This document shows, one piece after another, positions 25,720 through 57,524 of a DNA stretch of 64,000 nt. The notes under the pieces are model-generated. The model saw nothing but the letters and a program-made list of their open reading frames with translations. It was not told the DNA's origin and made no database searches. Position 1 is the stretch's first letter. Each line of letters opens with the position of its first letter. Origin of the DNA: Deltaproteobacteria bacterium (GTDB lineage Bacteria > JAGRBM01 > JAHCIT01); NCBI GenBank assembly GCA_026129095.1, contig JAHCIT010000005.1:1-64000 (forward strand), written 5' to 3'. The translations under genes were made by a program, and so were the position numbers.

Positions 25720-25738
25720 AACGCAGGGTATAAGAATC

Positions 25739-36484: not shown

Positions 36485-36788
36485 CCCCGCCTTATATCAG
36501 CCTTACGTACCAGCGGGCGCACATGACTTTGCTTTTTTGTCCGGAAACCTACGAACTTCTACGAACCTTGAGAGTTACTGGTATTTCTTGCCGCAATTCG
36601 CAGAAAACCAGTGCCGGACTCTTAATCAGCGGGTCGCCGGTTCGAGCCCGGCATCTCCCACCACACCTTTCCCCGGCAACTAAACCCCTGGTATCCCTGT
36701 CAGATTGCAGGAATGGGTCCATTACGGCCGGTTCCGGCTGAAACCGCCCGAATTGCTGGAAACCAGGAGCGGATGACTTTGGGACAGC
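36485..36788 (+). repeat. att-like repeat copy 1 with tRNA-Lys(CTT) 3' half (36617-36663)
   Basis: gactcttaatcagcgggtcgccggttcgagcccggcatctcccacca; ctacgaac tandem repeat upstream. Confidence 0.92.
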
Positions 36789-36849
36789 ATTTTCGCTGGC
36801 CATCGGGGCTGGTTTTGGGGTGAGCTCACAAGGCCGGTTTCTTTTCAGT

Positions 36850-37146
36850 TTACGACGGACCGGGAAGACGGGTACGGGTCAGCTCTGCGTTGCGGATATC
36901 GGCTATGTATTCCGACCGCTCCATCGGCGGTTCTCCTAGTATTCGCCGCTTCTCGTTTTCCTTTTCTTCAAGCGCCAAGAGATCAGGCGTCATATTTTCA
37001 TCTCTTGATGGCTCCAGAGACTCGAAGGTCAGCGACACGCACGCATACACCTGGCTCTCATAGATATCCGCCTTGCACCCATCGCACTCCAGGACGATCG
37101 GTTTGAGGGACAGGCTCTTCAAAAGACGCGGGTTCAAGCGCACCAT
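36850..37146 (-). CDS. Hypothetical protein (CxxC), possibly truncated
   Basis: Overlaps the ArdC-like stop; RBS GGAGG; CDGC. Confidence 0.45.
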   Translation of the reverse strand: MVRLNPRLLKSLSLKPIVLECDGCKADIYESQVYACVSLTFESLEPSRDENMTPDLLALEEKENEKRRILGEPPMERSEYIADIRNAELTRTRLPGPS

Positions 37147-38195
37147 GTGTATTCCTCCGGTTTGGGGTTTTCGGTGATATGTCCTGTGACAAGGGGTTTC
37201 GGTTTCGGCGGCCGCTTCCGCTCGGCGGCGCGGAGGATCTTCTGGGCGGCGCGCTGGATGCGGTTCATGGACTGCTCCAGATCCTCCACTCCGCCCTGGA
37301 GCCAGTTCCGGTCCTCCCAGTAGGCGATATAGGTCGGGGCCCGGGTCGGCAGCCCGAGGGCCCGGGCCACGATATAAGCGACCGACTCCGCCTCCATCTC
37401 GTAACGGGCCTTCAGAAGTATCCTGATGACCTGATAGGCCACGTCACTGGTGTCGCCGCCGCATTTCTTCAGCAACTCCTCGTTCTGAGGGGCGTGCAGA
37501 ATTTCGTGCGCCAGCTCATGGATCAGCACCAGCGACCTGCGCAGGGAGGAGAGCGTCAGGTCCACTTCGACCCGCCCGCCCCACGAACGGCCTGAATAGT
37601 TCCCGCCCGGCTCCTTTTTGGGCTCAACCGCGATACCCAGATGGGCCGCGCCGTTGAGCAGCCGGTCCCACCACGGGGTTTCCCCCTCCACCGACCAGCT
37701 GATCGTCGGCAGCGGCTCCCCCTCGGTCTGGGAAATATCGTAGACGCGGCCCAGGCGGAAACTGACCGCACAAACTACCCGGATCGGGAATTCACCCGGT
37801 TTCACCCTGCGGCGGTAACTTTTCCAGACCCGTTCACTGGCTACCCGGGTCGCTTCCGGGAATTGCTCGTAGATCCAGAGGATATTGCTGAAGGAATACC
37901 GGTTAAAGGCGGCGCACGTTTCCAGCCAGATCAGCCACTCATCCGAAAGCCGCGCCGCGTCGGTCTCCTGCGCCAGGTCCTGAACCCACTGGTGAGCCTT
38001 TTCGCGGACCCGCTGCCGGGCCTGCCGGATCTCGAATCCGGCCTCGGGCACCGCTTCCGTCGTGGCCGATGAGCCCGCCAGAAGCACATCCCGTCTAGCT
38101 TCGCGCTCGGCCCGTAGCCTCTGCCCCCATGCCTTCCGCGTGGCCCGCATCTCTTTCCGCCCGTAATTCGATCCGATATTCCGTCTGATCGCCAT
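37134..38195 (-). CDS. ArdC-like ssDNA-binding antirestriction protein with zincin-like domain
   Basis: FNRYSFSNILWI..Q.PEATRVA...W...R.VKPGE; YDISQTEG; LIHELAH..E.EAESVAYIV; RBS GGAGG. Confidence 0.85.
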   Translation of the reverse strand: MAIRRNIGSNYGRKEMRATRKAWGQRLRAEREARRDVLLAGSSATTEAVPEAGFEIRQARQRVREKAHQWVQDLAQETDAARLSDEWLIWLETCAAFNRYSFSNILWIYEQFPEATRVASERVWKSYRRRVKPGEFPIRVVCAVSFRLGRVYDISQTEGEPLPTISWSVEGETPWWDRLLNGAAHLGIAVEPKKEPGGNYSGRSWGGRVEVDLTLSSLRRSLVLIHELAHEILHAPQNEELLKKCGGDTSDVAYQVIRILLKARYEMEAESVAYIVARALGLPTRAPTYIAYWEDRNWLQGGVEDLEQSMNRIQRAAQKILRAAERKRPPKPKPLVTGHITENPKPEEYTWCA

Positions 38196-38234
38196 AACCG
38201 CACCTCCATTGATATAGTCATTATAAGGGATGCC

Positions 38235-38253
38235 TGTGACAGGTAGTGTCACA
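38235..38253. promoter_or_regulatory. Perfect palindrome TGTGACA-N5-TGTCACA upstream of the ardC-like gene
   Basis: tgtgaca ggtag tgtcaca, 40 bp upstream of the start. Confidence 0.6.
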
Positions 38254-38349
38254 AATCTGGATGGGTTCTAAGGGCCATTTGGAGGGGTTATAATGATAAC
38301 GGGACCGGCGACATGATTTGTCATTCGGGGCCGCTACACTGGCGGCCTG

Positions 38350-39399
38350 TCAGCGAAGGTCGTACCAGACCCCGCGGCCACTGCCGTGCTGGTTCAGTGT
38401 GCCCTGTTCGACCAGTGTCCGGAAATGCTGTTTGAGCGTGTTGCGGCTGGCGCCGGTCAGCTTGATCGCCTCGCCGATGGTGACCCGGCCGTGCTCGCGG
38501 GCGAATTCGACGATCCGGAGCGACAGTTCGGGCATCGCCGCCAGCACGATCCTTTCGCGCTCGACCTTCTTCTCCAGCCGCCTGACCTGCTCGGACAGGG
38601 ATCGCAGGAAAAACACGAGCCACGGCTGCCAGTCCGGCGCCCCGGTACGGATCGTACCCTGTGTCTGGCGCAGGGCCAGATAGTAAGCTTCCTTGCTCTG
38701 TTCGATCACGCTTTCCAAGGAGCTGTACGGCACGTAGGCGTAACCGGCCTGCAGGAGCAGGAGCGTTGTCAGCGCCCGGGAGAGCCGGCCGTTGCCATCC
38801 TGGAACGGATGGATCTCCAGAAACACAACAATGCAAAGGGCGATGACCAGCAGCGGATGCAGACGGGCTGCCTCCCGTTCCTGCCTCACCCAGGCCACCA
38901 GCTCCGCCATCAGCCGGGGCGTGTCGAACGGCGTCGCGGTCTCGAATACGACGCCGATCTGCACGCCGGTCTCGTCGAAGGCGGCTACACTGTTCGAATT
39001 CGTCTTGTAATGGCCCCGATGCCGGGTGTCCTTCTCGCTGTATTGCAGAAGGATCTGGTGCAATTGCTTGATGTGATTCTCGGTGAACGGAATGTCCTGC
39101 CAGGACGAGAATACCAGATCCATGAGTCCCGCATAGCCAGCCACCTCCTGCTCATCACGGGTGGCGAAGGACCTGATCTCCAGGTTCGCCAGCAGCCGTT
39201 CAACCTCCCGGTCGGACAGCTTGCTGCCCTCGATACGCGTGGAGGAGCCGATGCTCTCGATGGTGGCCACGCGCCGCAGGGCCGACAGCCGCTCAGGCGC
39301 GAGTGTGCCCAAGGCGCGCCAGGTACCTTTGAATTCGTCGATCCCGGCAATGAGGCCCAGGATCTCCGGGGTGATCTGAATGGTGTCTGCCCGAAGCAT
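38350..39399 (-). CDS. Fic-family protein with C-terminal HTH
   Basis: SSTRIEG inhibitory-type helix; HPFQDGNGRLSR; C-terminal wHTH ending HGSGRGVWY. Confidence 0.93.
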   Translation of the reverse strand: MLRADTIQITPEILGLIAGIDEFKGTWRALGTLAPERLSALRRVATIESIGSSTRIEGSKLSDREVERLLANLEIRSFATRDEQEVAGYAGLMDLVFSSWQDIPFTENHIKQLHQILLQYSEKDTRHRGHYKTNSNSVAAFDETGVQIGVVFETATPFDTPRLMAELVAWVRQEREAARLHPLLVIALCIVVFLEIHPFQDGNGRLSRALTTLLLLQAGYAYVPYSSLESVIEQSKEAYYLALRQTQGTIRTGAPDWQPWLVFFLRSLSEQVRRLEKKVERERIVLAAMPELSLRIVEFAREHGRVTIGEAIKLTGASRNTLKQHFRTLVEQGTLNQHGSGRGVWYDLR

Positions 39400-39580
39400 G
39401 AGCCAATACTACACCCATTTACACCCATTTCCGAGCAGCATCATTATGGCCGGTTTTCACACAATCTACCGGGATTGAGCTTATATGACGGTAACGAGCC
39501 CAATAATGGGGGGGGGGATTCCGGAACCCCAGTCGAAGACACATCCTGTCACTCGCCCGGCTATATTCCCGCTTACGAGC

Positions 39581-40462
39581 ATGCCGCTTAAACTTCTCAT
39601 CACCGATCTCGACCACACGCTCTGGGACTGGGCGGGGTATATCGTGCCGTCGCTGAAGGCGATGGTGGGGTCACTCGAACGGACGACCGGCTATCCCCGT
39701 CCGTTCATCATCCGGTCGCTCCGGCAGGTCTATGGCCGCTACCAGACCACCGAATACGCCTTCGCGCTCCAGCAGTCGGATATCTGGACCCGCTGGCGAA
39801 AGCAGCACGGAAACGATCTCGACGGTTTCCTGGAGAACGTCGTGGCCCCGGCCGCCCTCGCCTACGCCGCCGAACGGAAGAAACGTTTTTGCCTGTATCC
39901 TGGCGTGAAAGAGACGCTTGAGCAGATCAGGCAATCAGGTGTGAAGATCGTCGCTTTATCCGACGCGCCGAGATTTCCTGCCGAGCAGCGGCTGAAGCGC
40001 GCCGGCATCGACGGCGTGTTCGACGCGCTCTATTGCCTGAAGTCCTATCCGATTCCGAAGTCCGGCGGCCGCCACCGGGTCGCGCCGTTCATTGTCGTCA
40101 AAGAGAAGTCCGGCCACTACCGGTCGAAGGTGAAACGGGTCATCGAGCTGCCACCCGCCTGGGAGAAACCGGACCCGCGTGGACTCAGGAAAATCCTGAA
40201 ATCGTTCGGCGTAAAGCCGGAAGAAGCGATCCTCGCCGGCGATTCCCTCCGGAAAGACGGGGCCGTCGCTCACGCCGCCCATGTTCCGTTCTACTGGGCA
40301 CGCTACGGAACCGGGATCCCGGCCAAGGCCCTTGAAGAACTCTCCCTCTATACCCCCGCCGCCGTCCGGCGGCGGAACTCTTCACCGCCAGCGGGAGAAG
40401 TGCACAGGAGGGGAGAACTGGCTTCGTTCGGGGATCTGCTGAGATGTCTCCCCTCAGCCTGA
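39581..40462 (+). CDS. HAD-superfamily hydrolase
   Basis: LITDLDHTLW (DxD), LYPGV, LSD, KPDP, GDS..KD. Confidence 0.88.
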   Translation: MPLKLLITDLDHTLWDWAGYIVPSLKAMVGSLERTTGYPRPFIIRSLRQVYGRYQTTEYAFALQQSDIWTRWRKQHGNDLDGFLENVVAPAALAYAAERKKRFCLYPGVKETLEQIRQSGVKIVALSDAPRFPAEQRLKRAGIDGVFDALYCLKSYPIPKSGGRHRVAPFIVVKEKSGHYRSKVKRVIELPPAWEKPDPRGLRKILKSFGVKPEEAILAGDSLRKDGAVAHAAHVPFYWARYGTGIPAKALEELSLYTPAAVRRRNSSPPAGEVHRRGELASFGDLLRCLPSA

Positions 40463-40520
40463 TCACCCGTCCCGGTTGCAGTTACAAAATCAATACCGGA
40501 ACAGAAGTGCCAGCACCCTC

Positions 40521-40589
40521 CCCCCTCCCTCGTACTATCCAGCTGGCCATGAGCCGGTCCCCAGTATGGGAATCGGGATGATAGAGGAG
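40521..40589 (-). repeat. Duplicated fragment of the terL 3' region (31801-31867)
   Basis: Same sequence with 4 substitutions and a 2-nt insertion. Confidence 0.9.
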
Positions 40590-40894
40590 TGACCCGCCCC
40601 GCCTCATATCAGCCTTATGCCCCCACAGGGCGCACATGGCTTTCCTTTTTTGTCCGGAAACCTACGAACTTCTACGAACTGGCTCGGAGATTTTCCTGTA
40701 ACTGGAGGGGGTTAAAGAGCCGGACTCTTAATCAGCGGGTCGCCGGTTCGAGCCCGGCATCTCCCACCACACCTTCCCCCGCCAATTAACCCCTAGGTAT
40801 CCCTGTCAGATTGCAGGTTTGGGTCCATCGCGGCCGGTTCCGGCTAAAACCGTCCGAACTCCTGAAAAACGGGAGCGGATGACTTTGGGACAGC
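40590..40894 (+). repeat. att-like repeat copy 2 with tRNA-Lys(CTT) 3' half (40723-40769)
   Basis: Identical 47-bp core; flanks shared with copies 1 and 3; begins TGACCCGCCCC. Confidence 0.92.
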
Positions 40895-40974
40895 GAGTAG
40901 AACACGTCCCTCATCTGGCTTTCCTGGTCGCTCCGGTAGGGATGATCGCCCGGACGCCGCGCTCCAGTATCCGG

Positions 40975-41190
40975 TCGAAAACCCCCGGCTTTCCGCCATG
41001 AATTGAACCGGTGATAGACCGGCTGCCACTCGCCGTACCACTCCGGCATGTCCCGCCACGGCATCCCCGCCGACAGCACCCAGAACGTCCCGTTCATGAC
41101 CGTTCGCGGGTCGTTCAGCGGGCCGCCGAACCCCCGTTTGAGCAGTAAATTCTCGATCAGCCTGAACTGGTCTTCCGACAAATCGTACGG
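40975..41190 (-). pseudogene. IS5-family transposase N-terminal fragment
   Basis: YDLSEDQF..IE.LL..R.VMNG.FWVL..G.PWRDMPE.YG.WQ.VY.RF..W. Confidence 0.85.
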
Positions 41191-41385
41191 CGGGCCATCG
41201 GTGCATCTCTCCTGCACCCCCACTCCCCGCCACGGGTAAAAGATTCGTGCCGGAAGTACAAGCACTTTTCAGTCAGAGCCTAGCTACTTTCGGGATACCG
41301 CCACCAGATTGTCAAGAATAGAAATTCCATCCTATTCTGGAGATCCTGTTTCATGTTCTAGTGCAACCACATCCGGCGGGATTCG

Positions 41386-43845
41386 ATGGATATTGGTTTT
41401 GAATCGGCTGCGGGTTGGCTGGTGCCGGCATTACTGGCCGCACTGGCTGGAGCCCTGATTGTCTGTCGGCGGATTTATACCGGATCCCGGACGCTCGAAG
41501 CCGAACTTGTCCGGGGGCAGCACCGCCTCCGGATGGTTCTGGAAACCCTGCCAGACCTGTACTTCATCCAAACGGCTGATGGCGTGTTTCTGGAGTGGTA
41601 CGCATCAAATCCGGAGATGCTTGCACTGCCGCCGGAGCAGTTCGTCGGGCGCTCAATGCGGGAAGTACTGCCGGCCGATCTTTGCGAACTGTCGGCGCAG
41701 GCGTTCCAGGAAGCCCGGGCCCAAGGCGCTGCCACGCCGTTTGAATACGCCCTGAAGTTCCAGGGCATGGAACGGATCTACGAGGCCCGGGTTTTTCCCT
41801 ACGGAGAAAAGGAGTTCCTGACAGTAGCCCGGGATATTACGAACCGCCGGCGCATGGAAGAAGGGCTTGTGCGGTCGCGGGAGTTTCTCCAGGACATTCT
41901 GGATTCCCTGGCTTCTTCTATTGCCATTCTGGACTGGAACGGGGTGATTCTGTCGGTCAACGCTGAATGGAACCGTTTTGCGTCCGAAAACGGCGGCAAT
42001 CCACAGACTTGCGGTGCCGGGGCCAGTTATCTGAAGGTTTGCCACCGGGCCAATGGCCCGGGATCGGAAGCGGCCGGAGTGGTCGCGGCCGCCATCGTGG
42101 ATCTGGCGGCGGGAAACCGGGACCGTTGCGAGGTTGAATATCCCTGCCACGGAAACGGAGAGGACCGCTGGTTCGTCGTGCGGCTGAGCAGGTTCAGCCA
42201 TCATGGTCAGGTCCGCATTGTTGCCGCGCACACCGACATAACTGCGAGGAAGCAGTCCGAGATGGCTCTGGCCTCCACGTTCCGGCAGATACAGCAGATC
42301 AAGCGCGAGTGGGAAGCAACCGTCGACACCCTGCCGGAACTGGTTTGCCTTCTTGACAACTCGGGCCGCGTGGTACGTGCAAATCGGCGCATGCTCGACT
42401 GGGGTATTTCAACTTTCGCGGGACTGCCGACACGGCCGCTACCAGATCTGATTTTCCGTGATGCCGGCCCAGGCCCCACTCTCCTGTGGAGCGAGGCATG
42501 GAACCGGATGAAGGCAGAGGGAGTCGGTGGATTTGATCTGGATACACCAGTTTCCGGCCGGTACCTGAAGATCGACCTGAGACCGGTCAGCCAGGAACTC
42601 GGCTCCACGGGAGAAAGTCTGGTGCCATATGCGGTTGCTACCGTTTATGACATCAGCGCACAGGTGAAAGCTGCCCAGTTACGTCAGCAGCTTGAAGAGC
42701 AATTACGTCAGGCGCAGAAAATGGAGATCGTCGGACAGCTGGCCGGTGGGGTGGCGCACGATTTCAACAACCTGCTGGTTGTCATCAACGGATATGCGCA
42801 TGTGCTGATGGCCCAGCTGGACCCGTCGTCACAGATGTGGGAAGACGCCCGGAGCATTTTTGAAACCGGCGAACGTGCGGCCGCCCTGACTCGCCAGCTT
42901 CTCACGTTCAGCCGTCAGCAGATCGCCGAGCCAAGACTGCTCAATGTGGGTGAGGTCGTCGGGGGAATGGAAAAGATTCTCCGCCGCCTGATTCGGGAAA
43001 ACGTGGTCCTGCATTTCAACCTAGAGGCTGGGGGCTGGGAAGTCAGGGCTGATCCCCGCCACCTGGAGCAGATAGTCGTGAACCTGGCGCTGAACTCACA
43101 GGATGCGATGCCCGAAGGCGGTACACTATCCATTTCGGTCCGGGAAATGGTGGATGGCGACGGGCAGGTGCGGTTCGTGGTGCTGGAAACCTCTGATACC
43201 GGAACGGGAATGCCGGCACATGTGAAGGCGCGCATCTTCGAGCCGTTTTTCACCACGAAGGAGGTTGGCAAGGGTACGGGGCTCGGCCTCTCGGTGGTCT
43301 ACGGTATTGTGCAGGGGCTCGGGGGACATGTCGAGGTGGACAGCGAGGAAGGCAGGGGAACCCGGATTCAGATACGGATTCCTGCTGTCGCTTCGACTGA
43401 GGCAGCGGATGAAACCGATGCCCCGCCACTGCCCTCTGGCGGGCAGGAAACGATTCTGGTGGTTGAGGATGAAGAAGCCGTCCGGCAGGTCGCGGTCCGG
43501 ACACTGAAGGGGCTGGGATACCAATTACTTGAATCATCAAGCGGTGAAGATGCCCTACGGATCGCTGCCGCACATCGGGGGGAGATTCACCTGCTGCTTA
43601 CGGATGTCGTGATGCCTGGCATGAGCGGCATCGCACTGGCAAGAGCCATCCAATCAGTCCGGCCGGGAACCCGCTATCTGCTGGTTTCCGGGTATGCGGG
43701 TGACGCCCTGAATGCACTGCCCGGCGTACCGGAACGGCATCTCGTCCTGAAGCCATACCGCCCGGATGACCTCGCCCGAAAGATACGTGAGATACTGGAC
43801 GGTCCGGTCGAACCGGTCCCGGAAGCGAATCCAAATATTCCTTGA
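41386..43845 (+). CDS. Hybrid sensor histidine kinase (TM-PAS-PAS-PAS-HisKA-HATPase-REC)
   Basis: GQLAGGVAHDFNNLL, NLALNSQDAM, FEPFFTTK..GKGTGLGL, VVEDE..TDVVMP..KPY. Confidence 0.93.
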   Translation: MDIGFESAAGWLVPALLAALAGALIVCRRIYTGSRTLEAELVRGQHRLRMVLETLPDLYFIQTADGVFLEWYASNPEMLALPPEQFVGRSMREVLPADLCELSAQAFQEARAQGAATPFEYALKFQGMERIYEARVFPYGEKEFLTVARDITNRRRMEEGLVRSREFLQDILDSLASSIAILDWNGVILSVNAEWNRFASENGGNPQTCGAGASYLKVCHRANGPGSEAAGVVAAAIVDLAAGNRDRCEVEYPCHGNGEDRWFVVRLSRFSHHGQVRIVAAHTDITARKQSEMALASTFRQIQQIKREWEATVDTLPELVCLLDNSGRVVRANRRMLDWGISTFAGLPTRPLPDLIFRDAGPGPTLLWSEAWNRMKAEGVGGFDLDTPVSGRYLKIDLRPVSQELGSTGESLVPYAVATVYDISAQVKAAQLRQQLEEQLRQAQKMEIVGQLAGGVAHDFNNLLVVINGYAHVLMAQLDPSSQMWEDARSIFETGERAAALTRQLLTFSRQQIAEPRLLNVGEVVGGMEKILRRLIRENVVLHFNLEAGGWEVRADPRHLEQIVVNLALNSQDAMPEGGTLSISVREMVDGDGQVRFVVLETSDTGTGMPAHVKARIFEPFFTTKEVGKGTGLGLSVVYGIVQGLGGHVEVDSEEGRGTRIQIRIPAVASTEAADETDAPPLPSGGQETILVVEDEEAVRQVAVRTLKGLGYQLLESSSGEDALRIAAAHRGEIHLLLTDVVMPGMSGIALARAIQSVRPGTRYLLVSGYAGDALNALPGVPERHLVLKPYRPDDLARKIREILDGPVEPVPEANPNIP

Positions 43846-43945
43846 ATATCAAAGCAATATGGGGCGGGCACTACCAAAGCATGTCTTTCCAGAAGCCAAG
43901 GTTCCGGTTTTGATATGACCCAGCCTTCCTGAAGCCGGCAATCCT

Positions 43946-48545: not shown

Positions 48546-48560
48546 GCAAACCGCGGGCCC
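48546..48560 (-). promoter_or_regulatory. Sigma-54 promoter (variant)
   Basis: GGGCCC-GCGGT-TTGC (GG-N10-GC), 30 bp upstream of the ATG at 48515. Confidence 0.6.
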
Positions 48561-48761: not shown

Positions 48762-50204
48762 TTATGCTTCTGGATCGCCTTCATCTCCATTTGCATCTGA
48801 CCCGTGCAAGCCGCTCTTCTGGAGCAGACGCCGGAAATTGCTTCGATCCATGCCGGCCAGCGAAGCCGCCTTGGAAATGTTCCCGTCCGCCTGTTTCACC
48901 ATGTAACTGAGATAGGCGGCATTGAACTGCTGGAGAAAGCGGTCCTTTTCATCCTGGTAGCTCCCGCCAAACGGGCCTGCCATGTCCATTCCTCCAGGAA
49001 TGGCCTCGCCAGCAGTCAACGGGCCGGGTGATGCAGCCGTGCCGGGAATCCCCTGGACCGCAATCAGTCCACCCTTCCCGAACACAACAGACCGTTCCAC
49101 CACATTCTTCAACTCACGGATATTGCCCGGCCAGGAATAGCTGCGTATCGCCGCCATGCCCTCTGGTGTGAAACCTTCAGCAGGCTTACCGTACTTTTTC
49201 GCAAACATCTGGAGAAACAGGTGAGCAAGCAGCTCGGCATCTCCCGGCCGGGACCGGAGCGGCGGGGCCTCGATGCGGATTACATTCAGCCTGTAGAACA
49301 GGTCCTCCCGGAAGGTCTTCTTGCGGACTTCAGCCTCAAGATCACGGTTGGTGGCTGCAATGATCCGGGTATTGACAGTACGGGTCTGGGAGCTTCCCAC
49401 CCGGCGCACTTCCCCTTCCTGTATGGCTCGCAGCAGCTTGGCCTGGAGCTGAAGGGCGAGTTCGCCAATCTCATCCAGAAAAAGCGTGCCGCCGTCAGCC
49501 GCCTCAAACAGGCCGGCACGGGGCTTGTCGGCACCGGTAAAGGCCCCCTTTTCGTGGCCGAACAGTTCCGATTCGACCAGCGTTTCAGTAAAGGCCGAGC
49601 AGTTGGCTATGACAAACGGCCCATCGCGGCGTTCCGAATGCTCGTGGAGCGACCGGGCAAGAAGTTCCTTGCCAGTTCCGCTGTCACCGGTAATCAGTAC
49701 CGGAGCACCGGTCGGCCCAGCCGTCTCCACCAGGCGGCGAATCTCCTCAATCTGGGAGCTTTGACCCAGGATCATTGCTGCCGCCGGCTGGTTTGACTGC
49801 TCCAGTTCCCGCGCCTTGCGGCGCAGCCGGACCAGTTCTCCGGCACGCTGGACAAGGAAAACAAGCCGCTCGGCATCGAACGGTTTCAATAGGTAATCAT
49901 AGGCTCCCTCGCGTACCGCGGTAATCGCCTGCGGCACGTCGCCATGGGCCGTGATAAAGATGACCTCCGGTTCGCCGGGTAGTTTCCGATAGTCCGAAAG
50001 AGCATCGAGTCCCGTGCGGCGCGGCATCGAAACGTCAGAAACCACGACATCCACTGTTCCGTCAGGAAATCCATTTAACGCCCGTTCCACATCCGGGAAA
50101 GTCCGCACACTCATCCCTTTCCCACCCAGAATACGCGAATACAGGGTCAGGATGGCCTGCTCATCATCGACCAGGGCGACAACCAGCGGAGTATCAAACT
50201 GCAT
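48762..50204 (-). CDS. Sigma-54-dependent response regulator (NtrC/AtoC family)
   Basis: REC, GDSGTGKE, ELFGHEKGAFTGA, LFLDEIG, FREDLFYRL, WPGNIREL, Fis-type HTH. Confidence 0.95.
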   Translation of the reverse strand: MQFDTPLVVALVDDEQAILTLYSRILGGKGMSVRTFPDVERALNGFPDGTVDVVVSDVSMPRRTGLDALSDYRKLPGEPEVIFITAHGDVPQAITAVREGAYDYLLKPFDAERLVFLVQRAGELVRLRRKARELEQSNQPAAAMILGQSSQIEEIRRLVETAGPTGAPVLITGDSGTGKELLARSLHEHSERRDGPFVIANCSAFTETLVESELFGHEKGAFTGADKPRAGLFEAADGGTLFLDEIGELALQLQAKLLRAIQEGEVRRVGSSQTRTVNTRIIAATNRDLEAEVRKKTFREDLFYRLNVIRIEAPPLRSRPGDAELLAHLFLQMFAKKYGKPAEGFTPEGMAAIRSYSWPGNIRELKNVVERSVVFGKGGLIAVQGIPGTAASPGPLTAGEAIPGGMDMAGPFGGSYQDEKDRFLQQFNAAYLSYMVKQADGNISKAASLAGMDRSNFRRLLQKSGLHGSDANGDEGDPEA

Positions 50205-50347
50205 TCGCCGGGAAATCCTTCCGATGGATCCAGTGGAGCTTGGACTTGTGAAAGGAACTGTAGCCTTATCAGAATGTAGTAGCCAGCCATGAAATCCCGT
50301 TATCCGGATCGTCATGGACTGCCTCGCTGTTCCCTGCGCGGCCGGCA

Positions 50348-50749
50348 TCAGACACCCGGCCTGATATCCAGAAATTCTCCCAGGCGGCTCAGCACATCCA
50401 CCAGCACGGAAAGTGGCCGCCTCCACCTGTCACCGACGGAGTCACGCGCCCCCCTCGACAGCAGTTCAAGCTCCGTTTCGGCCCGGCCCGCCATCATGCC
50501 AATACTCTCAAAACCGAATATCCCAGCTCCACCGGCGATTGAATGGACAAGGCGGTGGAGCTTGCGGGCTTCCCCGGGCTGCGGCCGGGCGGCACCAGGT
50601 GCCAGAAAGGGCTCGCACAGGCTGGCCGTTCGCACCGCCTCGGTCAGGAATTCGATCTGGAGATCGTCGATATTGTCGCCAACTCCCTGTGCAATACCGA
50701 AGGAACGTGCCGGGGTGTCCGCGAGAGCCTGTGTAGCAGCGCCTTGCAT
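50348..50749 (-). CDS. Stand-alone Hpt domain protein
   Basis: LHRLVHSIAGGAGIFGF..A...E; RBS GGAGG. Confidence 0.85.
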   Translation of the reverse strand: MQGAATQALADTPARSFGIAQGVGDNIDDLQIEFLTEAVRTASLCEPFLAPGAARPQPGEARKLHRLVHSIAGGAGIFGFESIGMMAGRAETELELLSRGARDSVGDRWRRPLSVLVDVLSRLGEFLDIRPGV

Positions 50750-50811
50750 GACTGGAATCCTCCGTTGACCTGCCTTCCTGACTCAACCGCCAGCGGGGCG
50801 GCGCCGGTGGA

Positions 50812-51399
50812 CTAAAGCGAGATCCGGGTATCGGGTTCCGGCTGCATCCCCCAAGACTTCGTTTCGTAGGCATAGACCGCTGCATCTGGCGGAATGGCTC
50901 CGGCAGTATTCACGCTGCCATCGATCCGGGCGCCGCGCAGATCGGCCCCAGCCAGCCGGGCGCCTTCCAGCCGGGCGCCGCGCAGATCGGCGCCGCGCAG
51001 ATCGGCGAAGGAGAGGTCCGCATTCTCCAAGTTGCTGCCCCGCAGGTCGGCCCCCTGAAGTTTGGATCGTGACAGATTCGCACCACTGAAGTCGGACCCA
51101 CTGGCCGCAGTCTCATTGAGAACAGCGAATCTCAGGTCTGCCTGAATGAACTTCACGCCCGAGATATCCCGGCCAGTCAGATTGGCAGCGGCAAGCCGGG
51201 CTCCCTCGCAGGAAAACCCCGAATCCAACAGGATATTATCGTGACACATCAAACGTCCGTCGAGACGGGTATGCATGTTGTCCGCGACGATCGGTCCCTT
51301 CATCGCACACCCAGACGACAGGGCAATGTGCAGTAAACCGATGATGGCCGTAATGACGACGTTGAAGGCCAGTTTCGTTTCGATGGTTCCGGTTTTCAT
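50812..51399 (-). CDS. Pentapeptide-repeat lipoprotein
   Basis: Lipobox-like LSSGC; repeated A(D/N)LxG units; RBS GAGGAG. Confidence 0.85.
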   Translation of the reverse strand: MKTGTIETKLAFNVVITAIIGLLHIALSSGCAMKGPIVADNMHTRLDGRLMCHDNILLDSGFSCEGARLAAANLTGRDISGVKFIQADLRFAVLNETAASGSDFSGANLSRSKLQGADLRGSNLENADLSFADLRGADLRGARLEGARLAGADLRGARIDGSVNTAGAIPPDAAVYAYETKSWGMQPEPDTRISL

Positions 51400-51427
51400 G
51401 ATCGCAGTCTCCTCGACTGTGCCAAGA

Positions 51428-51442
51428 GCAACCGGAGTGCCA
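51428..51442 (-). promoter_or_regulatory. Sigma-54 promoter
   Basis: TGGCAC-TCCGG-TTGC, a perfect consensus, 28 bp upstream of the pentapeptide gene. Confidence 0.85.
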
Positions 51443-51737
51443 TCGCTTACAAAAGGATGGCGACGAATATGAGGGAAGAGCTGCAAGCCCATGGAAATCC
51501 TTGGATATCCGGATTTTCCATCTGCGGCAGGCAACCCGTTTTTGATCTGCTAGGATCCCTACTTTCCCGGTGTCCAATGTTACCCGCCGGGTTCCTAATG
51601 ACCCCAAAATACAGATCCGATCTGCCTCCTTGCTGGTACTGGCACCAAAACTCCGACAGGAGCCAGGCACCATGCAGAACGCTAAAATCATTGGGTTCTG
51701 CCTCCTTGAGGCAAATTGTATCCAGGTTTGGGTTGTT

Positions 51738-51752
51738 TGGCCCGGCTGTTGC
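51738..51752 (+). promoter_or_regulatory. Sigma-54 promoter (divergent)
   Basis: TGGCCC-GGCTG-TTGC, ~50 bp upstream of the ATG at 51802. Confidence 0.75.
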
Positions 51753-51801
51753 TTCATCCAGAAGCGGGCACATCGTGCCCCGGAAGAGGAAGTACCCGAG
51801 G

Positions 51802-52722
51802 ATGAATGCAAAACCGAAGACAAAAACCCAAAGTACGCAACGCAAGGTGCGCCCTGCCGGAGCCAAGAAGTCCGCCCTTACCGGGGCACGTTCCAGCAAG
51901 CGCGTTTCCATGAAGGAAGGCGCTGACAAGCCTGCACCGGCCCGTCGAAAGGTATCTGTCCCGGCCCGGCGCAGTATGCGCCGGAAGATACCCACTGCGG
52001 CCGACGCCATCATGGCAATTCCACTCGGCCACAAGCCCGAAGTCCGTCGGAACCCGGACCGCCGCTTGGAAGTCATTTCGGCAGGAGCCGTGCTGGTGGC
52101 CTCGGTGGCCATTGTCCTTGGGATAGCGCTCACCGGGCCCGAGCCCGTTCCTCCAACACCCGTTCCGGCCACTACCGCACCTGCTGATAGCGCAGTGCCC
52201 ACGCCCGCCGAACCAGAGCAGACTGCCAAGCCCCAGCCCGACACAAAACCCCCGGCAGCACGGAAGACTACCGCGGCCAAGCCGAAACCTGCCCCGGTAG
52301 TTCTGGCCGAATGGGCCCGCCCGGCCATCGACGTACGGATGCACAACATCAGACGGCTCTATTGGAACATCATGCAGGACGGCGAAGGGCCTGTGGGTGA
52401 GCTGGCCGTCCACCTTCAGGTAGAACCGGAGGGACATGTGAGCCGTGCCTGGGTTGAGCGGAGCACGCTCGCCCGCAATTACGGGTCTTTCGAAGCCAGT
52501 GTGGTGAGGGAACTCATCTCTGCACCCTTCAACGCAACTGGCGCGGACCGGCCACTGGGCGTCGTTGTCCCGATCGCGTTCGACGGCACGCAGAGCATTG
52601 TCGAACGGATCCTGGCAAGCGACGCAACGGATCCGGTCAGTTCCGGACGGCCTTATGCACAAGTCTTGACGCGGGAAATGCCGGGGGTGGCAGATGCCAG
52701 CCGGCATGCCTCCGCTTCCTGA
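51802..52722 (+). CDS. Bitopic membrane protein with TonB-like AgmX/PglI-type C-terminal domain
   Basis: Lys/Arg-rich N-terminus, one TM, Pro/Ala/Thr linker, IRRLY..G.L.V.L.V.PEG.V....VERSTL..VVVPIAF. Confidence 0.7.
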   Translation: MNAKPKTKTQSTQRKVRPAGAKKSALTGARSSKRVSMKEGADKPAPARRKVSVPARRSMRRKIPTAADAIMAIPLGHKPEVRRNPDRRLEVISAGAVLVASVAIVLGIALTGPEPVPPTPVPATTAPADSAVPTPAEPEQTAKPQPDTKPPAARKTTAAKPKPAPVVLAEWARPAIDVRMHNIRRLYWNIMQDGEGPVGELAVHLQVEPEGHVSRAWVERSTLARNYGSFEASVVRELISAPFNATGADRPLGVVVPIAFDGTQSIVERILASDATDPVSSGRPYAQVLTREMPGVADASRHASAS

Positions 52723-52746
52723 AACGTCCCTTACCTCCTCCTCCAT

Positions 52747-52782
52747 GGCAGCTCTCTCATGACGAGGGAGCTGCCCCTTTTT
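52747..52782 (+). terminator. Rho-independent terminator
   Basis: ggcagctctctc-atgac-gagggagctgcc followed by a T-tract. Confidence 0.8.
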
Positions 52783-52947
52783 GTTACAAAAATATCAACG
52801 GAAGCCAGCGGGAAAATGGTTCTCCGCCTTGCCAGCAGAAAACGCAATCATTAAAATGTTTTTCAGTTTCGACATTTTTCACCTTTACTGTTTTGGCTGT
52901 GCCGCGCCATCAAGCGCGAATATGGACAAGGCAAGAGCAGATCAGGC

Positions 52948-54753
52948 ATGAGACTCAACTTTGACCGGAAATCTGCTTTGGGACTGGTTGCTGCCATCCT
53001 GCTGGTTGTCGCAGCAGGCACGGCTGCCTATCTCGATCTCCACCAGTTCCGCGACACAGTCAAACGCGTTTCACATAGCCATAGAGTTCTTCTGAAGTTG
53101 GAACATATTCGCTCGCTCATGCAGGATGAGCAGATCGGTGTACGTGGCTTCGTCATTACCGGTGACGCCCGCTCGCTGGAGACCTATTTCCATACGCGAG
53201 CAGTGATTTCCGATGAGCTGGGCAGCCTCCGCCGGCTGACATCCGATAACCCGGCATACCAGGCCCGCATCCAGAAACTGGAATCCCTGATTCGCCAGCG
53301 GTTCGACCTGAGCGAACAGATCATCAACCAGCGGAAAACCACCGGGGCAGAAACCGGGGAAGCCCTGTCTCTGATTACCCATGCCGCACAGTATATGGAA
53401 CGTATTCGCGGGATTGTCGATGCAATCGAAACCGGGGAAACCCGGTTCCTCGAAGAGCGTACCCGCCGGGCAGAAGCCGATTCCCGGATGACACTGATGA
53501 CGCTGGGGGTATTCGGAACGCTCGGGGTCGTGGCCATTGTCGCGTTTGTCATGCTGCTCAACCGGGAGCTCGGCCGCAGCCAGCAGTTCGAGCAGGCACT
53601 TCGCCGGGAAGAAGAACGGCTCAGATCCATCATGGACAACAGTCCGCTTGTCATTTTTCTAAAGGATACCGAAGGCCGCCACCAGTTCGTCAACCAGGAG
53701 TTCCTGGACGCCTTCCGGCTGGACCGTTCCCACGTCATCGGCCGTGCCGATAGGGAAATCTTTCCTCCTGAAATCGCCGACAAGTTCATGTCAAACGACC
53801 GCGAAGTAATGGCGACCGGCCATCCCGCCCAGTTCGAGGAAACCGCCAACCGTGATGGAGTCCCTCATATTTACTCTGTCGCCAAGTTCCCGCTCCGTGA
53901 GCCCGGCGGAAGGATATATGCCATTTGCGGCATGGCCTCCGACATTACTGAACGGAAGAAAGCCGAAGAAACGATCCGGGGGCTGAGCGATTCCCTCATT
54001 TCCCGCACCCAGCAGCTCGAAGCCGCCAATCACGAGCTTGAGGCTTTCAGTTATTCCGTTTCTCATGATCTCCGGGCACCACTCCGGAGCATCAATGGCT
54101 TCAGCCAGGCCCTGATAGAGGATTACCGGGACAAGCTGGAGCCCGCCGCACAGGACTATCTGAACCGGATCATGGTGGCCACCCGGCGCATGGGGCATCT
54201 CATTGACGATCTGCTGGAACTGTCACGGGTCACACGCGCTGACATATGCGGACAGTGGGTGGACCTGAGTGCTCTTGCCCGGAGCGTCATGGACGAACTC
54301 CGGCAGTCAGCACCCGGCCGGGAAGTCCACGCCACCATTAAAGATGGCATCTCCGGCTGGGGAGACACCAGACTCCTCCGGGTCATCCTGACAAACCTTC
54401 TTGGTAACGCCTGGAAGTTCACTTCAAAAACTCCTTGCCCATCCATTGAATTCGGGAGCATTGCGCATCCGGACGGCACTGCTACCATTTTTGTACGTGA
54501 CAACGGCGCCGGCTTCGACATGGCCCACGCAAAAAACCTCTTTGGCGTGTTTCAGCGCCTTCATTCTACATCAGAGTTCGAAGGAACAGGGATTGGCCTG
54601 GCGACCGTCCGGAGGATCGTGCAGCGGCACGGCGGTATGGTCCGGGGCGAAGGCCGGCCGGGTGAAGGCGCGGTATTTTACTTCACGCTGGGCCGCCCCC
54701 GGGTGTCTGCGGAAGGAGCAGCTGGTGAGCAGCAAATATATTCTGCTGGTTGA
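52948..54753 (+). CDS. Sensor histidine kinase (TM-CHASE3-TM-PAS-HisKA-HATPase)
   Basis: VSHSHRVL..G.RGFVITGD (CHASE3); FSYSVSHDLRAPLR; NAWKF; FQRLH..FEGTGIGLA. Confidence 0.93.
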   Translation: MRLNFDRKSALGLVAAILLVVAAGTAAYLDLHQFRDTVKRVSHSHRVLLKLEHIRSLMQDEQIGVRGFVITGDARSLETYFHTRAVISDELGSLRRLTSDNPAYQARIQKLESLIRQRFDLSEQIINQRKTTGAETGEALSLITHAAQYMERIRGIVDAIETGETRFLEERTRRAEADSRMTLMTLGVFGTLGVVAIVAFVMLLNRELGRSQQFEQALRREEERLRSIMDNSPLVIFLKDTEGRHQFVNQEFLDAFRLDRSHVIGRADREIFPPEIADKFMSNDREVMATGHPAQFEETANRDGVPHIYSVAKFPLREPGGRIYAICGMASDITERKKAEETIRGLSDSLISRTQQLEAANHELEAFSYSVSHDLRAPLRSINGFSQALIEDYRDKLEPAAQDYLNRIMVATRRMGHLIDDLLELSRVTRADICGQWVDLSALARSVMDELRQSAPGREVHATIKDGISGWGDTRLLRVILTNLLGNAWKFTSKTPCPSIEFGSIAHPDGTATIFVRDNGAGFDMAHAKNLFGVFQRLHSTSEFEGTGIGLATVRRIVQRHGGMVRGEGRPGEGAVFYFTLGRPRVSAEGAAGEQQIYSAG

Positions 54754-55162
54754 GGACAATCCCGATGACGAGGCGCTCACATTGCGTACGCTCCGCAAAT
54801 GTGGTCTTGCCAACGAAGTACATGTTGTCCGCGACGGTGCTGAAGCACTCGATTTTCTTTTCAAGGCCGGTCGCTACGAGAACCGGAGCCCCAATGACCT
54901 GCCAGCCCTGATCCTCCTGGATCTCAAGCTGCCGAAAATTGACGGGCTGGATGTCCTGAAGCGGATACGTGCGGATACCGGCACGAAGCTGCTGCCGGTC
55001 GTCATATTCACTTCATCGAAAGAGCAGCAGGATCTCCTTGCCGGGTATACGAATGGTGCAAACGGATATGTACGGAAGCCTGTTGATTTCGCCGAATTCG
55101 CCGAAGCGGTGGCGGCCCTTCACCTCTACTGGATGATTACCAACGAGCCCATCCCAAGGTGA
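54725..55162 (+). CDS. Single-domain response regulator (Rcp1-like)
   Basis: GTG start; LLVEDNPDD, LLDLKLPKIDG, FTSS, RKPVDF. Confidence 0.92.
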   Translation: MSSKYILLVEDNPDDEALTLRTLRKCGLANEVHVVRDGAEALDFLFKAGRYENRSPNDLPALILLDLKLPKIDGLDVLKRIRADTGTKLLPVVIFTSSKEQQDLLAGYTNGANGYVRKPVDFAEFAEAVAALHLYWMITNEPIPR

Positions 55163-55177
55163 TCCGGGAAAGTAACA

Positions 55178-57133
55178 ATGAGTGAGAGCCCGCAGATCAG
55201 GGTCCTTTTCATAGAAGATTCCGAGGATGACGCCCTGCTCGCCATCCGTGAAATCAGTCATGGCGGATTCTCCGTGGATTACCAGCGTGTGGAGACTGCT
55301 GATCAAATGCAGACGGCGCTGGAAAAATCCGAATGGGATGTGGTGATCTGCGACCATCACATGCCCAGGTTCAACAGCTTTTCCGCCTTGCGTCTCCTCA
55401 AGACGATGCGGCCCGACATCCCGTTCATTTCCGTGTCTGGTACGCTCGGAGAGGATATGGCCGTCGAGGCAATGCGGGCAGGTGCCTATGACTACATGAT
55501 CAAGTCCAACCTGAAGCGCCTCGTTCCCTCCATCAGCCGCGCACTTCGGGAAAACGAGAGCCGCAAGGCCCATCGGGCGGCCGAAGACCAGCTTCGCCTG
55601 CTGGAGGCCGCCATACGAGGCATTCATGAGGGTGTAGTGGTGACGGATGCCCGGCTTGATCCTCCCGGTCCAACCATCGTCTTCGTGAATGACTACCTCT
55701 GCCGGCTGACGGGGTATGCTCCAGGTGAACTGATCGGCAAAACCCCCCGCCTGTTCCAGGGATCCAAAACCGACCGGCAGTTGCTGGATTCACTGAAGAG
55801 GGCTCTCCGTTCCGGACAGCCATTCACTGGCGAAACGGTCAACTACCGGAAGGACAGATCTGAATACCTGGCGGAGTGGCATATTTCGCCGGTCAGGGAC
55901 CGCGATGGAAACATATCGAATTTCATCTCAACACAGCGGGATCTGACAGAACGCCGGCGGGCCGAGCAGCGGCACGCCGAAATGGAACGCCAGTTCCGGG
56001 TGGCCCAGAAACTGGAAGCGGTGGGCCAACTCGCTGGCGGCATTGCTCACGATTTCAACAATCTGCTGGTGGTCATCAACGGATACGCACAAATGCTCCG
56101 TAACAATCTCGCCGGCCAGGCCCGGCAGCAGGAAGATGCCGGGTTGATTCTCCAGGCAGGCGAGCGGGCCGCCGATCTCACACGGCGGCTGTTGACATTC
56201 AGCCGGCAGGACACCCGTAATCCACGCCGGACTACCCTGAATGATATTATCAAAGGGTTTGAGAAGATGCTCCGGCGGCTCGTCCGGGAAGACATAGACC
56301 TGCAATTCCACCTCGCATCCGATATCCGCCACATAAAGGTAGATCCGGGCCAAATGGAACAGATTCTGCTGAACCTCAGCATCAACGCATCCGATGCCAT
56401 GCCCCACGGCGGCATACTTGCGATTGAAAGCCGGAATGGGGAGCTGTCCGCATCCAACCTCAATCCACTTTTTGACGCAAAACCGGGGCATTACTCAGTC
56501 CTGACGGTTCGCGACAACGGCACTGGCATCAGCGAGGACATCCTGTCCCGTATTTACGAGCCGTTTTTCACCACCAAGGGAGACGGAAAAGGAACAGGCC
56601 TGGGGCTCGCCACCGTGCTTGGAATTGTGAAAGCCCACGGTGGCCTAATCCGGGTTCGCAGCCGCGAGGGCGAGGGAACCGAGTTCCAGATATATCTACC
56701 AGAGAATACCGCCGCACAGGAACAGTCCGCACGGCCTATCCAACCCGTGACCGGTGGTAGCGAGACTATACTGCTCGTCGAAGACCAGCCCGAGGTTCGG
56801 ACCGTAGCAGCACGCATACTGGCCGGGTTTGGCTACCAGGTGATAGAGGCGGGCAATGGCGAGGAAGCGCTCGAAGCCGCTGCACGGCATTCGGGACCAG
56901 TCCACCTGCTGCTTTCCGATGTAATCATGCCCCGGATGAGCGGTCCGGCACTGGCCGACCGCCTCCTGCAGCAGAGGCCGGATACCCGTGTCCTGTTCGT
57001 ATCCGGTCACATTTCGGACGTGACTGGCAAGCACGTTCTCCTGAATGAATCGTCCGAACTGCTCAGAAAACCCTACCATCCAGACGATCTGGCCAGAGCG
57101 GTGCGAAGCGCTCTTGACCGGAAAAGACCGTGA
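55178..57133 (+). CDS. Hybrid kinase REC-PAS-HisKA-HATPase-REC
   Basis: IEDSEDD..CDHHMP; PAS with NYRKD; GQLAGGIAHDFNNLL; PFFTTK; SDVIMP. Confidence 0.93.
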   Translation: MSESPQIRVLFIEDSEDDALLAIREISHGGFSVDYQRVETADQMQTALEKSEWDVVICDHHMPRFNSFSALRLLKTMRPDIPFISVSGTLGEDMAVEAMRAGAYDYMIKSNLKRLVPSISRALRENESRKAHRAAEDQLRLLEAAIRGIHEGVVVTDARLDPPGPTIVFVNDYLCRLTGYAPGELIGKTPRLFQGSKTDRQLLDSLKRALRSGQPFTGETVNYRKDRSEYLAEWHISPVRDRDGNISNFISTQRDLTERRRAEQRHAEMERQFRVAQKLEAVGQLAGGIAHDFNNLLVVINGYAQMLRNNLAGQARQQEDAGLILQAGERAADLTRRLLTFSRQDTRNPRRTTLNDIIKGFEKMLRRLVREDIDLQFHLASDIRHIKVDPGQMEQILLNLSINASDAMPHGGILAIESRNGELSASNLNPLFDAKPGHYSVLTVRDNGTGISEDILSRIYEPFFTTKGDGKGTGLGLATVLGIVKAHGGLIRVRSREGEGTEFQIYLPENTAAQEQSARPIQPVTGGSETILLVEDQPEVRTVAARILAGFGYQVIEAGNGEEALEAAARHSGPVHLLLSDVIMPRMSGPALADRLLQQRPDTRVLFVSGHISDVTGKHVLLNESSELLRKPYHPDDLARAVRSALDRKRP

Positions 57134-57264
57134 AATGCTGGGAACCAAGCAAACCCTGCGGCCTGTCCTTTATAATCAGCGCAGAACCTGCCGACCCAGA
57201 TGCCCCGGCGCGCCATACCCTTAGGAGATTGTCGTCTCCACTCCTTAACTGGAACCACACCCCT

Positions 57265-57524
57265 ACCCGCCCCGCCTCATATCAGCCTTATGCCCCCACA
57301 GGGCGCACATGACTTTGCTTTTTTGTCCGGAAACCTACGAACTTCTACGAACTGGCGCGGCGATTTCCCCGTAACTGGAGAGGGTTAAAGGGCCGGACTC
57401 TTAATCAGCGGGTCGCCGGTTCGAGCCCGGCATCTCCCACCACACCTTCCCCCGGCAGTTAAACCCCTCATATCCCTGTCAGATTGCAGGTTTGGGTCCA
57501 TCTCGGCCGGGTCAGGTCGAAACC
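57265..57524 (+). repeat. att-like repeat copy 3 with tRNA-Lys(CTT) 3' half (57396-57442)
   Basis: Identical 47-bp core; flanks close to copy 2; similarity fades ~80 bp after the CCA. Confidence 0.92.

Follow-up and report, generated by a model that had tools for sequence, protein, structure and literature searches.

The window analysed here, the first 64,000 nucleotides of contig JAHCIT010000005.1 (C19:1-64000) in the assembly of a Deltaproteobacteria bacterium (GCA_026129095.1, hereafter G000; 23 contigs, 3.67 Mb), carries three direct copies of a repeat built around the 3′ half of a lysine tRNA gene. A repeat search of the window returned one repeat family, with 260-nt copies at 36486-36745, 40592-40851 (the reference) and 57265-57524, the last of which is 92% identical to the reference without gaps. 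In gapped blastn against copy 2, copy 1 aligns at 82.5% identity over 309 nt (E = 1e-82) and copy 3 at 91.9% over 260 nt (E = 2e-104), and a blastn search of the whole assembly with copy 2 returns the other copies at E values of 1e-82 to 1e-124, a similarity far beyond chance. Gapped alignment shows that the three copies are homologous over ~300 nt and share a 57-nt block that is invariant in all three. The central 47 nt of this block, the core, are identical in all three copies and constitute the 3′ part, from the anticodon stem to CCA, of the genome's sole tRNA-Lys(CTT) gene (positions 30-76 of that gene, which lies on contig C14). The copies are conserved on both sides of the core, and since ARAGORN calls zero tRNAs in the window and Rfam finds no family there at its gathering score, no copy has a tRNA 5′ half.

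Alignments and motif scans divide each copy, on the forward strand, into a P arm, the core and a P′ arm. Junction 1 has a P arm of type A (36485-36616) with two CTACGAAC repeats at 36549-36566, a core at 36617-36663 and a P′ arm at 36664-36830, the first 89 nt of which are 100% identical to the sequence that follows the intact tRNA gene on C14. Junction 2 has a P arm of type B (40597-40722; CTACGAAC repeats at 40662-40679), a core at 40723-40769 and a P′ arm at 40770-40900. Junction 3 also has a type B P arm (57270-57395; CTACGAAC repeats at 57335-57352), a core at 57396-57442 and a shorter P′ arm (57443-57524) that diverges after about 80 nt. The repeats upstream of the core form a tandem CTACGAAC-TT-CTACGAAC in each window copy, beginning at 36549, 40662 and 57335. 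This pair, with its 10-bp phasing, is present in 5/5 P arms of G000, in the single P arm (1/1) of a genome from a sister genus (G001, below) and in zero P′ arms, and the 8-mer itself occurs only 71 times in 3.67 Mb. A preliminary description of this DNA had reported the three direct repeats with their identical tRNA half, the arm-like tandem repeats, the conservation on both sides of the core and the missing 5′ half, all of which our repeat search, blastn, alignments and tRNA and Rfam scans bear out.

Genome-wide blastn finds exactly six sites, comprising four full copies, one site with a P arm and core only, and one with a core and P′ arm only. The fourth full P-core-P′ junction lies outside the window at C19:67413-67716 (junction start 67418). 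At C19:75051-75194 a P arm and core are followed by unrelated sequence, and the core there has one G-to-A change and has lost the last five tRNA bases. The remaining site, C14:1-136 (reverse strand), comprises core and P′ arm and belongs to the sole tRNA-Lys(ctt) of the genome (C14 c[90,165] by ARAGORN), which is intact and is followed by the P′ arm. The six-way alignment reads tRNA 5′ half-core-P′ on C14, P-core-P′ at the four C19 copies and P-core at C19:75051, an arrangement from which we assign the C14 site as the predicted attL, the four C19 copies as putative attP-like junctions of tandem elements, and C19:75051-75194 as a probable decayed attR. All six sites share one orientation. The P head, the arm repeat, the core and the P′ tail are confined to these sites in genome motif scans allowing ≤3 mismatches, and with six sites only and no extra copies in these scans, the repeat is not dispersed. 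The first 136 nt of C14 are 100% identical to C19:36617-36752 and contig C14 stops there; this identity of its end with the junction 1 repeat explains why attL stands on a contig of its own. Position 1 of C19 is a unique contig start without the repeat.

The unit to the left of copy 1, which ends at junction 1 and which we term E0, encodes a 433-residue tyrosine integrase (18643-19944, forward strand; PF00589 1.3e-27 with a SAM-like N-terminal domain; phrog_1 integrase 1.9e-82) and, directly upstream, a predicted 72-residue excisionase or recombination directionality factor (18360-18578, forward strand; Pfam HTH_17 3.2e-12 and Phage_AlpA 5.5e-4; NCBIfam TIGR01764 'excise' 1.2e-11, above its cut-off). 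In an alignment with Tn1549 Int, the integrase shows the GLR..E, HDLRH, GHS and YSH motifs (Arg, His-x-x-Arg, His, Tyr). Four further units follow, each lying between two core-bearing sites with arms: E1 (3.8 kb), E2 (16.4 kb), E3 (9.9 kb) and E4 (7.3 kb). In six-frame searches PF00589 is found at seven places genome-wide, one of them at 19174-19707 and 0 in C19:36-75 kb, and PF00239 (serine recombinase) at two places, none of them on C19; these and the scans of open reading frames (ORFs) show E1-E4 to be without integration and transfer genes of their own. Indeed, Pfam, NCBIfam and Atlas scans of the E1-E4 ORFs, several of which match no family, detect no recombinase, relaxase or type IV secretion gene. 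The blocks between the repeat copies thus encode no recombinase, as the preliminary description had stated, and its term integrase-less holds for the inner units. It does not hold for the locus, where E0 supplies an excisionase and an integrase that the description had not linked to the repeats.

The locus has the hallmarks of a tRNA-associated island. Direct repeats of a tRNA 3′ part bound the inserts, with a core that is identical in the four junctions and in the tRNA gene; an intact tRNA stands at one end (attL, on the separate contig) and a partial copy, followed by ordinary chromosome, at the other (attR); and a tyrosine integrase with its catalytic motifs is encoded in the array together with a directionality factor. 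We conclude that the single tRNA-Lys(CTT) very probably hosts five or more site-specifically integrated units in tandem, an array built by accretion and then subject to decay. The direct basis for this conclusion is the anatomy of the sites, their restriction to a single locus, the absence of recombinase genes from E1-E4, and the linkage of integrase, terminase large subunit (TerL) and ParB-methylase genes to a P arm and core in a second genus. We infer from the sequences the action of the integrase on these sites, the succession of events and any mobility at present. A decayed tandem island array was one of two interpretations offered by the preliminary description, and it is the one that the attL on C14, the attR at C19:75051-75194 and the four same-orientation junctions between them favor.

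The mechanism we propose begins with recombination at the 47-nt core by the lambda-type integrase of E0 (18643-19944) and its excisionase (18360-18578), with crossover probably in the anticodon stem-loop part of the core. The two phased CTACGAAC repeats of each P arm are a candidate motif for the arm-type sites that would position the integrase. Related elements would have integrated successively into sites already bearing the core, leaving the internal core copies as leftovers of each integration. Units E1-E4 would have lost, or never had, an integrase of their own, making them similar to cis-mobilizable elements (CIMEs), and they may remain excisable by the E0 enzymes, singly or in blocks.

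Support for the linkage of these enzymes to the att sites comes from other genomes. We searched 61 genomes, G000 included, with a 311-nt junction; 27 of the 61 match some part of it, nearly always the tRNA part alone, and P arm matches are found only in G000 and G001, a member of the same family but of another genus. In G001 an integrase homologue (44% identical) is immediately followed by TerL (75%), the ParB-methylase (79-80%), two small ORFs, a P arm, the core, a P′ arm, a nitroreductase gene and a partial core, in that order, and the G001 P arm carries two CTACGAAC repeats at the same spacing to the core as in G000. The integrases of the two genomes are reciprocal best matches, at 44% identity versus 32% for the next best of the seven in G000. 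Because the genes for integrase, TerL and the ParB-methylase are linked in G001 with the same P arm and core, we regard the integrase at 18643-19944 as the likely cognate recombinase of the att sites. The intact tRNA-Lys(CTT) of G001 lies on another contig and is followed by a homologous P′ arm and then by a type I restriction gene. In two further members of the family, G002 and G003 (the latter 83% complete), only the native tRNA part matches, which suggests that their sites are unoccupied.

Two side observations concern the G001 locus. Its unit on contig C4 (L003:17657-18930) has a single gene, the nitroreductase (17999-18838), between a full P-core-P′ junction and the partial core, and both G001 junction cores carry a common T-loop variant, unlike the functional tRNA-Lys of that genome.

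The end of E0 next to junction 1 is a conserved module consisting of a phage terminase large subunit (31679-33169, reverse strand; phrog_38 1.2e-62; NCBIfam termin_lrg_T7 3.3e-19, below its cut-off) and a fusion of ParB-N with an N6_N4 DNA methyltransferase (33556-34905, reverse strand; Pfam N6_N4_Mtase 4.5e-17, ParB_N 3.5e-4), with two ORFs without a family between the latter and junction 1. The TerL is 25-28% identical to phage terminases over 85-92% of its length. Between G000 and G001 the ratio dN/dS is 0.11 for TerL and 0.10 for the ParB-methylase, with dS of about 1.4-1.5 and near saturation, values that point to purifying selection on both genes beside the att site in two genera. These neighbors (31679-34905; in G001 L003:13423-16547) are 75-80% identical, and no other phage structural gene is seen nearby. 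A search for relatives of the ParB-methylase returned 501, of which 80 were kept; these are about 45-62% identical and come from many phyla. A TerL homologue adjoins the methylase in 5 of the 80 kept loci, while the P-arm motif or core is found in 0/80, as is an integrase homologue.

Between integrase and terminase, E0 carries a heavy-metal P-type ATPase, an outer-membrane efflux protein, an RND pump and an IS3-family transposase (30410-31510), all by Pfam. In G001 no counterpart of this cargo block (20185-31510) separates the integrase homologue from that of TerL, and the G000 integrase would have been displaced from its att site by inserted metal-resistance cargo and an insertion sequence (IS). 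Pfam scans of E0 detect no conjugation genes, and capsid, portal and tail genes are absent among the scanned ORFs of C19:1-36 kb.

Further to the left, the window contains a low-G+C (53.6%) cluster at 141-15375 that encodes two ABC1/UbiB-like kinases, Coq4, a metal hydrolase, an epimerase, a patatin, a metallo-beta-lactamase-fold protein, an aldehyde dehydrogenase and a flavin monooxygenase. For most of these genes the genome contains paralogues at other places, 36-63% identical, and only the first 15 kb of C19 form a compositional outlier (97th percentile). Upstream of the excisionase and integrase genes, in a region of IS debris, 16435-16488 matches 36831-36885, just past the junction 1 P′ arm, as a 55-nt repeat of 85% identity; the ORF at 16189-16713 ends in an IS3-type helix-turn-helix (HTH).

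The cargo of the integrase-less units is varied. E1 (36850-40462) encodes a 98-residue ORF, an ArdC-N-like protein (37134-38252, reverse strand), a Fic/DOC-HTH protein (38350-39399, reverse strand) and a HAD hydrolase (39485-40462, forward strand), as judged by Pfam. At the left end of E2 an ORF at 40786-41265 (reverse strand) carries an IS5-family transposase fragment, with DUF4096 only (PF13340 4.7e-19), which is the sole mobile-element match in Pfam between the window copies. The remainder of E2 (41386-57133) is a signalling block in which Pfam identifies two PAS hybrid histidine kinases, a CHASE3 kinase, an RR-GGDEF protein, three single receiver proteins, a sigma-54 activator and a pentapeptide-repeat protein. 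The PAS kinases are the first and last large genes of the unit (41386-43845 and 55178-57133) and are paralogues with 48-49% amino acid identity, which accounts for a 107-nt repeat at 42700-42806 and 55991-56097.

E3 begins at 57544 and continues beyond the window's last position, 64000, to C19:67224. On the reverse strand it encodes a MoaA-like radical SAM protein, a cytochrome c-EB_dh protein, a NarJ-like chaperone, a 4Fe-4S subunit and a 1161-residue alpha subunit of the type II DMSO-reductase family (Pfam; NCBIfam TIGR03479 5.9e-106, below its cut-off). The operon looks complete, with the 4Fe-4S protein as beta subunit and an ethylbenzene-dehydrogenase-gamma-like domain fused to the cytochrome c, and its alpha subunit scores well under every equivalog cut-off. 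E4 (C19:67.7-75.05 kb) encodes a sigma-54 activator, a 978-residue protein with an adenylate-forming-like C-terminal part, a 552-residue protein and an HTH_3 regulator, the 978- and 552-residue proteins being Atlas leads only.

The arms themselves retain traces of history. The P arms fall into two groups, those of junctions 2, 3 and 4 being 88-92% identical to one another and those of junction 1 and attR 76% identical, with 53-67% identity between the groups. The P′ arms, compared with that of attL, are 100% identical at junction 1, 93% at junction 4, 87% at junction 2 and 80% at junction 3. When the arms are assigned to their units, one type is found in E0 and E4, the other in E2 and E3 and a mixture in E1, a mosaic from which it follows that several related elements contributed to the array. 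All copies, and G001 as well, share the point at which the P arm begins, and P arm plus core are 78% conserved between the two genera, which speaks for a function of the arms in the element family, though not necessarily at each internal site today.

Evidence of decay is also present, in the form of the IS5 fragment after junction 2, the truncated attR and a 69-nt remnant of a terminase large-subunit gene (40521-40589, reverse strand) that abuts the junction 2 P arm. The remnant is 91% identical to 31801-31867 (E = 2e-20) and corresponds to TerL residues 435-462 at 71% identity in tblastn. Its appearance is that of a scar left by deletion in an element formerly equipped with an end module of the E0 type. 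A search of C19:36.4-76 kb for remnants of the integrase, TerL, the methylase and neighboring genes found this TerL fragment only, at E1, and none in E2-E4. Moreover, E1 shares ~3 kb, at 70-82% nucleotide identity, with a segment of an integrase-bearing island at ssrA on contig C1, and in view of the shared segment and the TerL fragment E1 may be a derivative, by deletion, of an integrase-bearing element.

The ssrA island itself is ~41 kb long (C1:201970-242943) and is located at the tmRNA gene, with its own integrase and a 25-nt direct repeat; the segment in common with E1 is the ArdC-N-like/HAD part. Three other tyrosine integrases of G000 lie beside or near tRNA genes (C20:1997-2805, C20:119398-120146 and C19:108174-112196; tRNA-Gln(ctg), tRNA-Leu(caa) and tRNA-Lys(ttt)), and several small-RNA genes of this genome, that for tmRNA included, seem to carry islands.

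A number of observations weigh against a tandem array built by accretion, or against parts of that interpretation. The attL is on another contig, and its link to the array comes from sequence identity only. The integrase is 16.7 kb from the nearest att site and shares only 44% identity with its G001 counterpart, compared with 75-79% for its neighbors. The tRNA end at attR is not intact, so that what borders the array on the right may be a later deletion and not the flank of the original attB. Units E2-E4 do not stand out in composition, with 57-58% G+C versus 61.5% for the genome and a tetranucleotide use in the 72nd-77th percentile of 5-kb genome windows, which leaves the att sites as the sole argument for their foreign origin. 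Neither G001 nor G002, relatives too distant for a comparison of flanks, conserves the order of genes around tRNA-Lys, and the proteins beside the C14 tRNA and beside C19:75.2 kb have no homologues next to the tRNA-Lys of either. A search of metagenome contigs for two patterns, P arm plus core and two P-arm blocks, gave 0 matches each, and the att site has zero matches among phage records and matches 6 plasmid records in the tRNA part only. Finally, the contigs of four metagenome runs contain no circle or deletion junction in 35300-55299, where rare forms could be missed. In viral contigs the 18-nt arm motif has 6 matches, with the core nearby in 0/6, and these are chance matches.

The metagenome contigs also bear on a second interpretation, in which the integrase-less units are kept as a system, a live cassette platform whose single integrase and excisionase excise, reorder and exchange units in trans in the manner of an integron, with the internal sites under present selection. 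We regard this as unlikely, even though both arms are complete at the four internal junctions, which also retain the phased CTACGAAC pair and a 47-nt core free of mutations, the P arm has a constant left border in all copies and in G001, mosaic arm types are also expected from site-to-site recombination, and the one-gene unit of G001 lies between two cores. Logan contigs from four public metagenome runs of four studies (X1, X2, X5 and X6), assemblies that drop rare variants, were aligned to 35300-55299. The contigs cover E1 and E2 and extend into the junction arms, and none bridges the sites in a new arrangement; stretches that X5 and X6 leave uncovered carry no information. An X1 joint from 40589 to 35300 corresponds to the 69-nt repeat of 31801-31867, a joint from 55299 to 42757 falls at the repeat shared by the kinase paralogues, skips of ~450 nt at 42.77-43.24 kb have sides of only 22-26 nt, and loose ends at 40592-40872 match junctions 1, 3 and 4 and represent cross-mapping of other copies. 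The only joint not ascribed to repeats or cross-mapping is one in X2, from 40837 to 40592 (side 34), inside junction 2. Excision and shuffling of cassettes in trans, the other interpretation of the preliminary description, thus finds no evidence in these contigs, which can miss rare forms.

Nor does the invariant core require present selection, as the same description had proposed, because an element must bring an exact 3′ half if it is to integrate without killing the single tRNA-Lys(CTT); identity of the core is what rebuilding of the tRNA at integration already predicts. The decay marks and the nature of the units, which at 4-16 kb each contain multiple genes and regulators of their own and are not promoterless cassettes, also argue against a platform of this kind. 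Moreover, CIME mobilization is already described in a review (PMC5704250), and activity of the units would not make the array a new kind of system.

Depth and content of the X1 contigs are worth recording. The X1 contig that covers E1 (36852-40621) has a depth of 31.8, compared with 15.6-20.4 for the left flank and 13.1-15.5 for the greater part of E2, where two short contigs at 45.0-46.2 kb have 7.2-8.8; these depths are not copy numbers, and the excess at E1 could reflect a second copy, a circle or another carrier. In X2, depths are alike. One X1 contig tracks the junction 1 P′ arm to 36881 and then enters sequence with 0 places in the assembly (≤2 mismatches), which may be another element behind a similar P′ arm, or another strain.

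The module of integrase, terminase and ParB-methylase by the att site of E0 is shared by two genera, at a dN/dS of about 0.1 for terminase and methylase. Quite improbable, in our judgment, is nonetheless the proposal that E0 is a working satellite-like island and no prophage remnant, whose integrase and excisionase would excise contiguous integrase-less runs and whose own terminase would package them into the capsids of a helper phage. If this were true, the tRNA-Lys locus would be a modular, transducible array of cargo islands.

That one original junction gave rise to the others through segmental duplication or homologous recombination, a view for which the 136-nt stretch of 100% identity between attL and junction 1 and the 88-92% identity of the P arms of junctions 2-4 might be cited, is very improbable. 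When the array is compared by blastn and tblastn, no backbone is common to the intervening blocks, which are mutually unrelated. Each junction has the exact P-core-P′ layout; the two arm types combine independently, and the outer sites have exactly the hybrid structures expected of attL and attR. An assembly artefact, such as a collapsed or chimeric repeat, is extremely improbable. Contig C14 does end inside the repeat, which shows that the assembler had difficulty here, but the copies differ by 8-18% and have unique flanks, so that collapse, a concern already raised in the preliminary description, is not what we find; contigs from other studies cover E1 and E2 and run ~30 nt into the junction 2 P arm (X1 record 4, 36852-40621; X2 records 14 and 16), and a related layout exists in the independent genome G001. 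The chance that a short (~300 bp) repeat with a tRNA-derived part is a dispersed, non-autonomous element similar to a miniature inverted-repeat transposable element (MITE), or a family of tRNA-like RNA genes, is practically negligible, given that no tRNA or Rfam family is called, that a tRNA part without its 5′ half can form no cloverleaf, and that all six sites stand at one locus in one orientation, on which ground we rejected a MITE or other dispersed repeat.

Membership among integrons was likewise considered and rejected. The E0 integrase scores far under the cut-offs of the integron-integrase models (48.9 bits against 265 and 34.5 bits against 435), and the array consists of tRNA-core junctions and of 4-16 kb units with their own regulators. 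What the locus has in common with integrons is a single tyrosine recombinase, encoded at one end, for a whole array of recombination sites; the sites here, unlike theirs, are ~300-bp attP-like junctions with a tRNA core and not attC hairpins, and the units are multi-gene blocks.

As a tandem array produced by accretion and decay, the locus most resembles systems in other bacteria. CIMEs and tandem accretion are reviewed for the ICEs (integrative and conjugative elements) and the IMEs (integrative and mobilizable elements) related to ICESt1 and ICESt3 of Streptococcus thermophilus (PMC5704250). As described in that review, CIMEs are, like E1-E4, att-flanked units without integration genes; together with an element that has an integrase they form a tandem at a target gene's 3′ end, and their three-step history of integration, decay and further integration into a core-bearing site fits the present locus. 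In contrast to the S. thermophilus CIMEs, our units belong to another bacterial lineage, occur as four integrase-less units in a row, and are known from sequence alone; the integrase-bearing unit here has a phage terminase and ParB-methylase module, and no conjugation genes in Pfam scans. The same source mentions a composite island at tRNA-Lys of Streptococcus agalactiae, in which IME_Sag2603_tRNAlys lies in tandem with a decayed ICE (PMC5704250). That island, too, has tandem elements in a tRNA-Lys 3′ end and complex possible excision patterns; it differs, on the account given there, in its unrelated host and elements, in having two units rather than at least five, and in that excision was tested.

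In Dehalococcoides, tandem islands at ssrA include 15 without an integration module, which are discussed as possible CIMEs (PMC3146451). As described there, many tandem islands lie downstream of one small-RNA gene with 3′-end direct repeats and carry metabolic cargo, as at the present locus. The Dehalococcoides islands have an ssrA target, a 20-bp repeat and a serine recombinase next to attL (PMC3146451), whereas the present array targets tRNA-Lys(CTT) and has a 47-nt core, ~130-nt conserved arms on both sides of it and a tyrosine recombinase encoded at the far end of its unit.

Island accretion at tRNA genes is a known route of bacterial genome growth, and the locus reveals no new kind of system. 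It is a clean natural case of such accretion in a poorly sampled lineage, known from sludge and soil metagenomes, with at least 75 kb of cargo, including metal efflux, a signalling block and a molybdoenzyme operon, behind one tRNA-Lys gene and apparently served by one integrase. Particular to it are how many integrase-less units follow one another, the long arms on both sides of the core, and the pairing of TerL and ParB-methylase by the att site in two genera. The terminase kept beside the att site makes a possible role in island spread testable, and the six sites, two arm types and candidate arm motif are defined substrates for asking whether integrase-less islands stay mobilizable.

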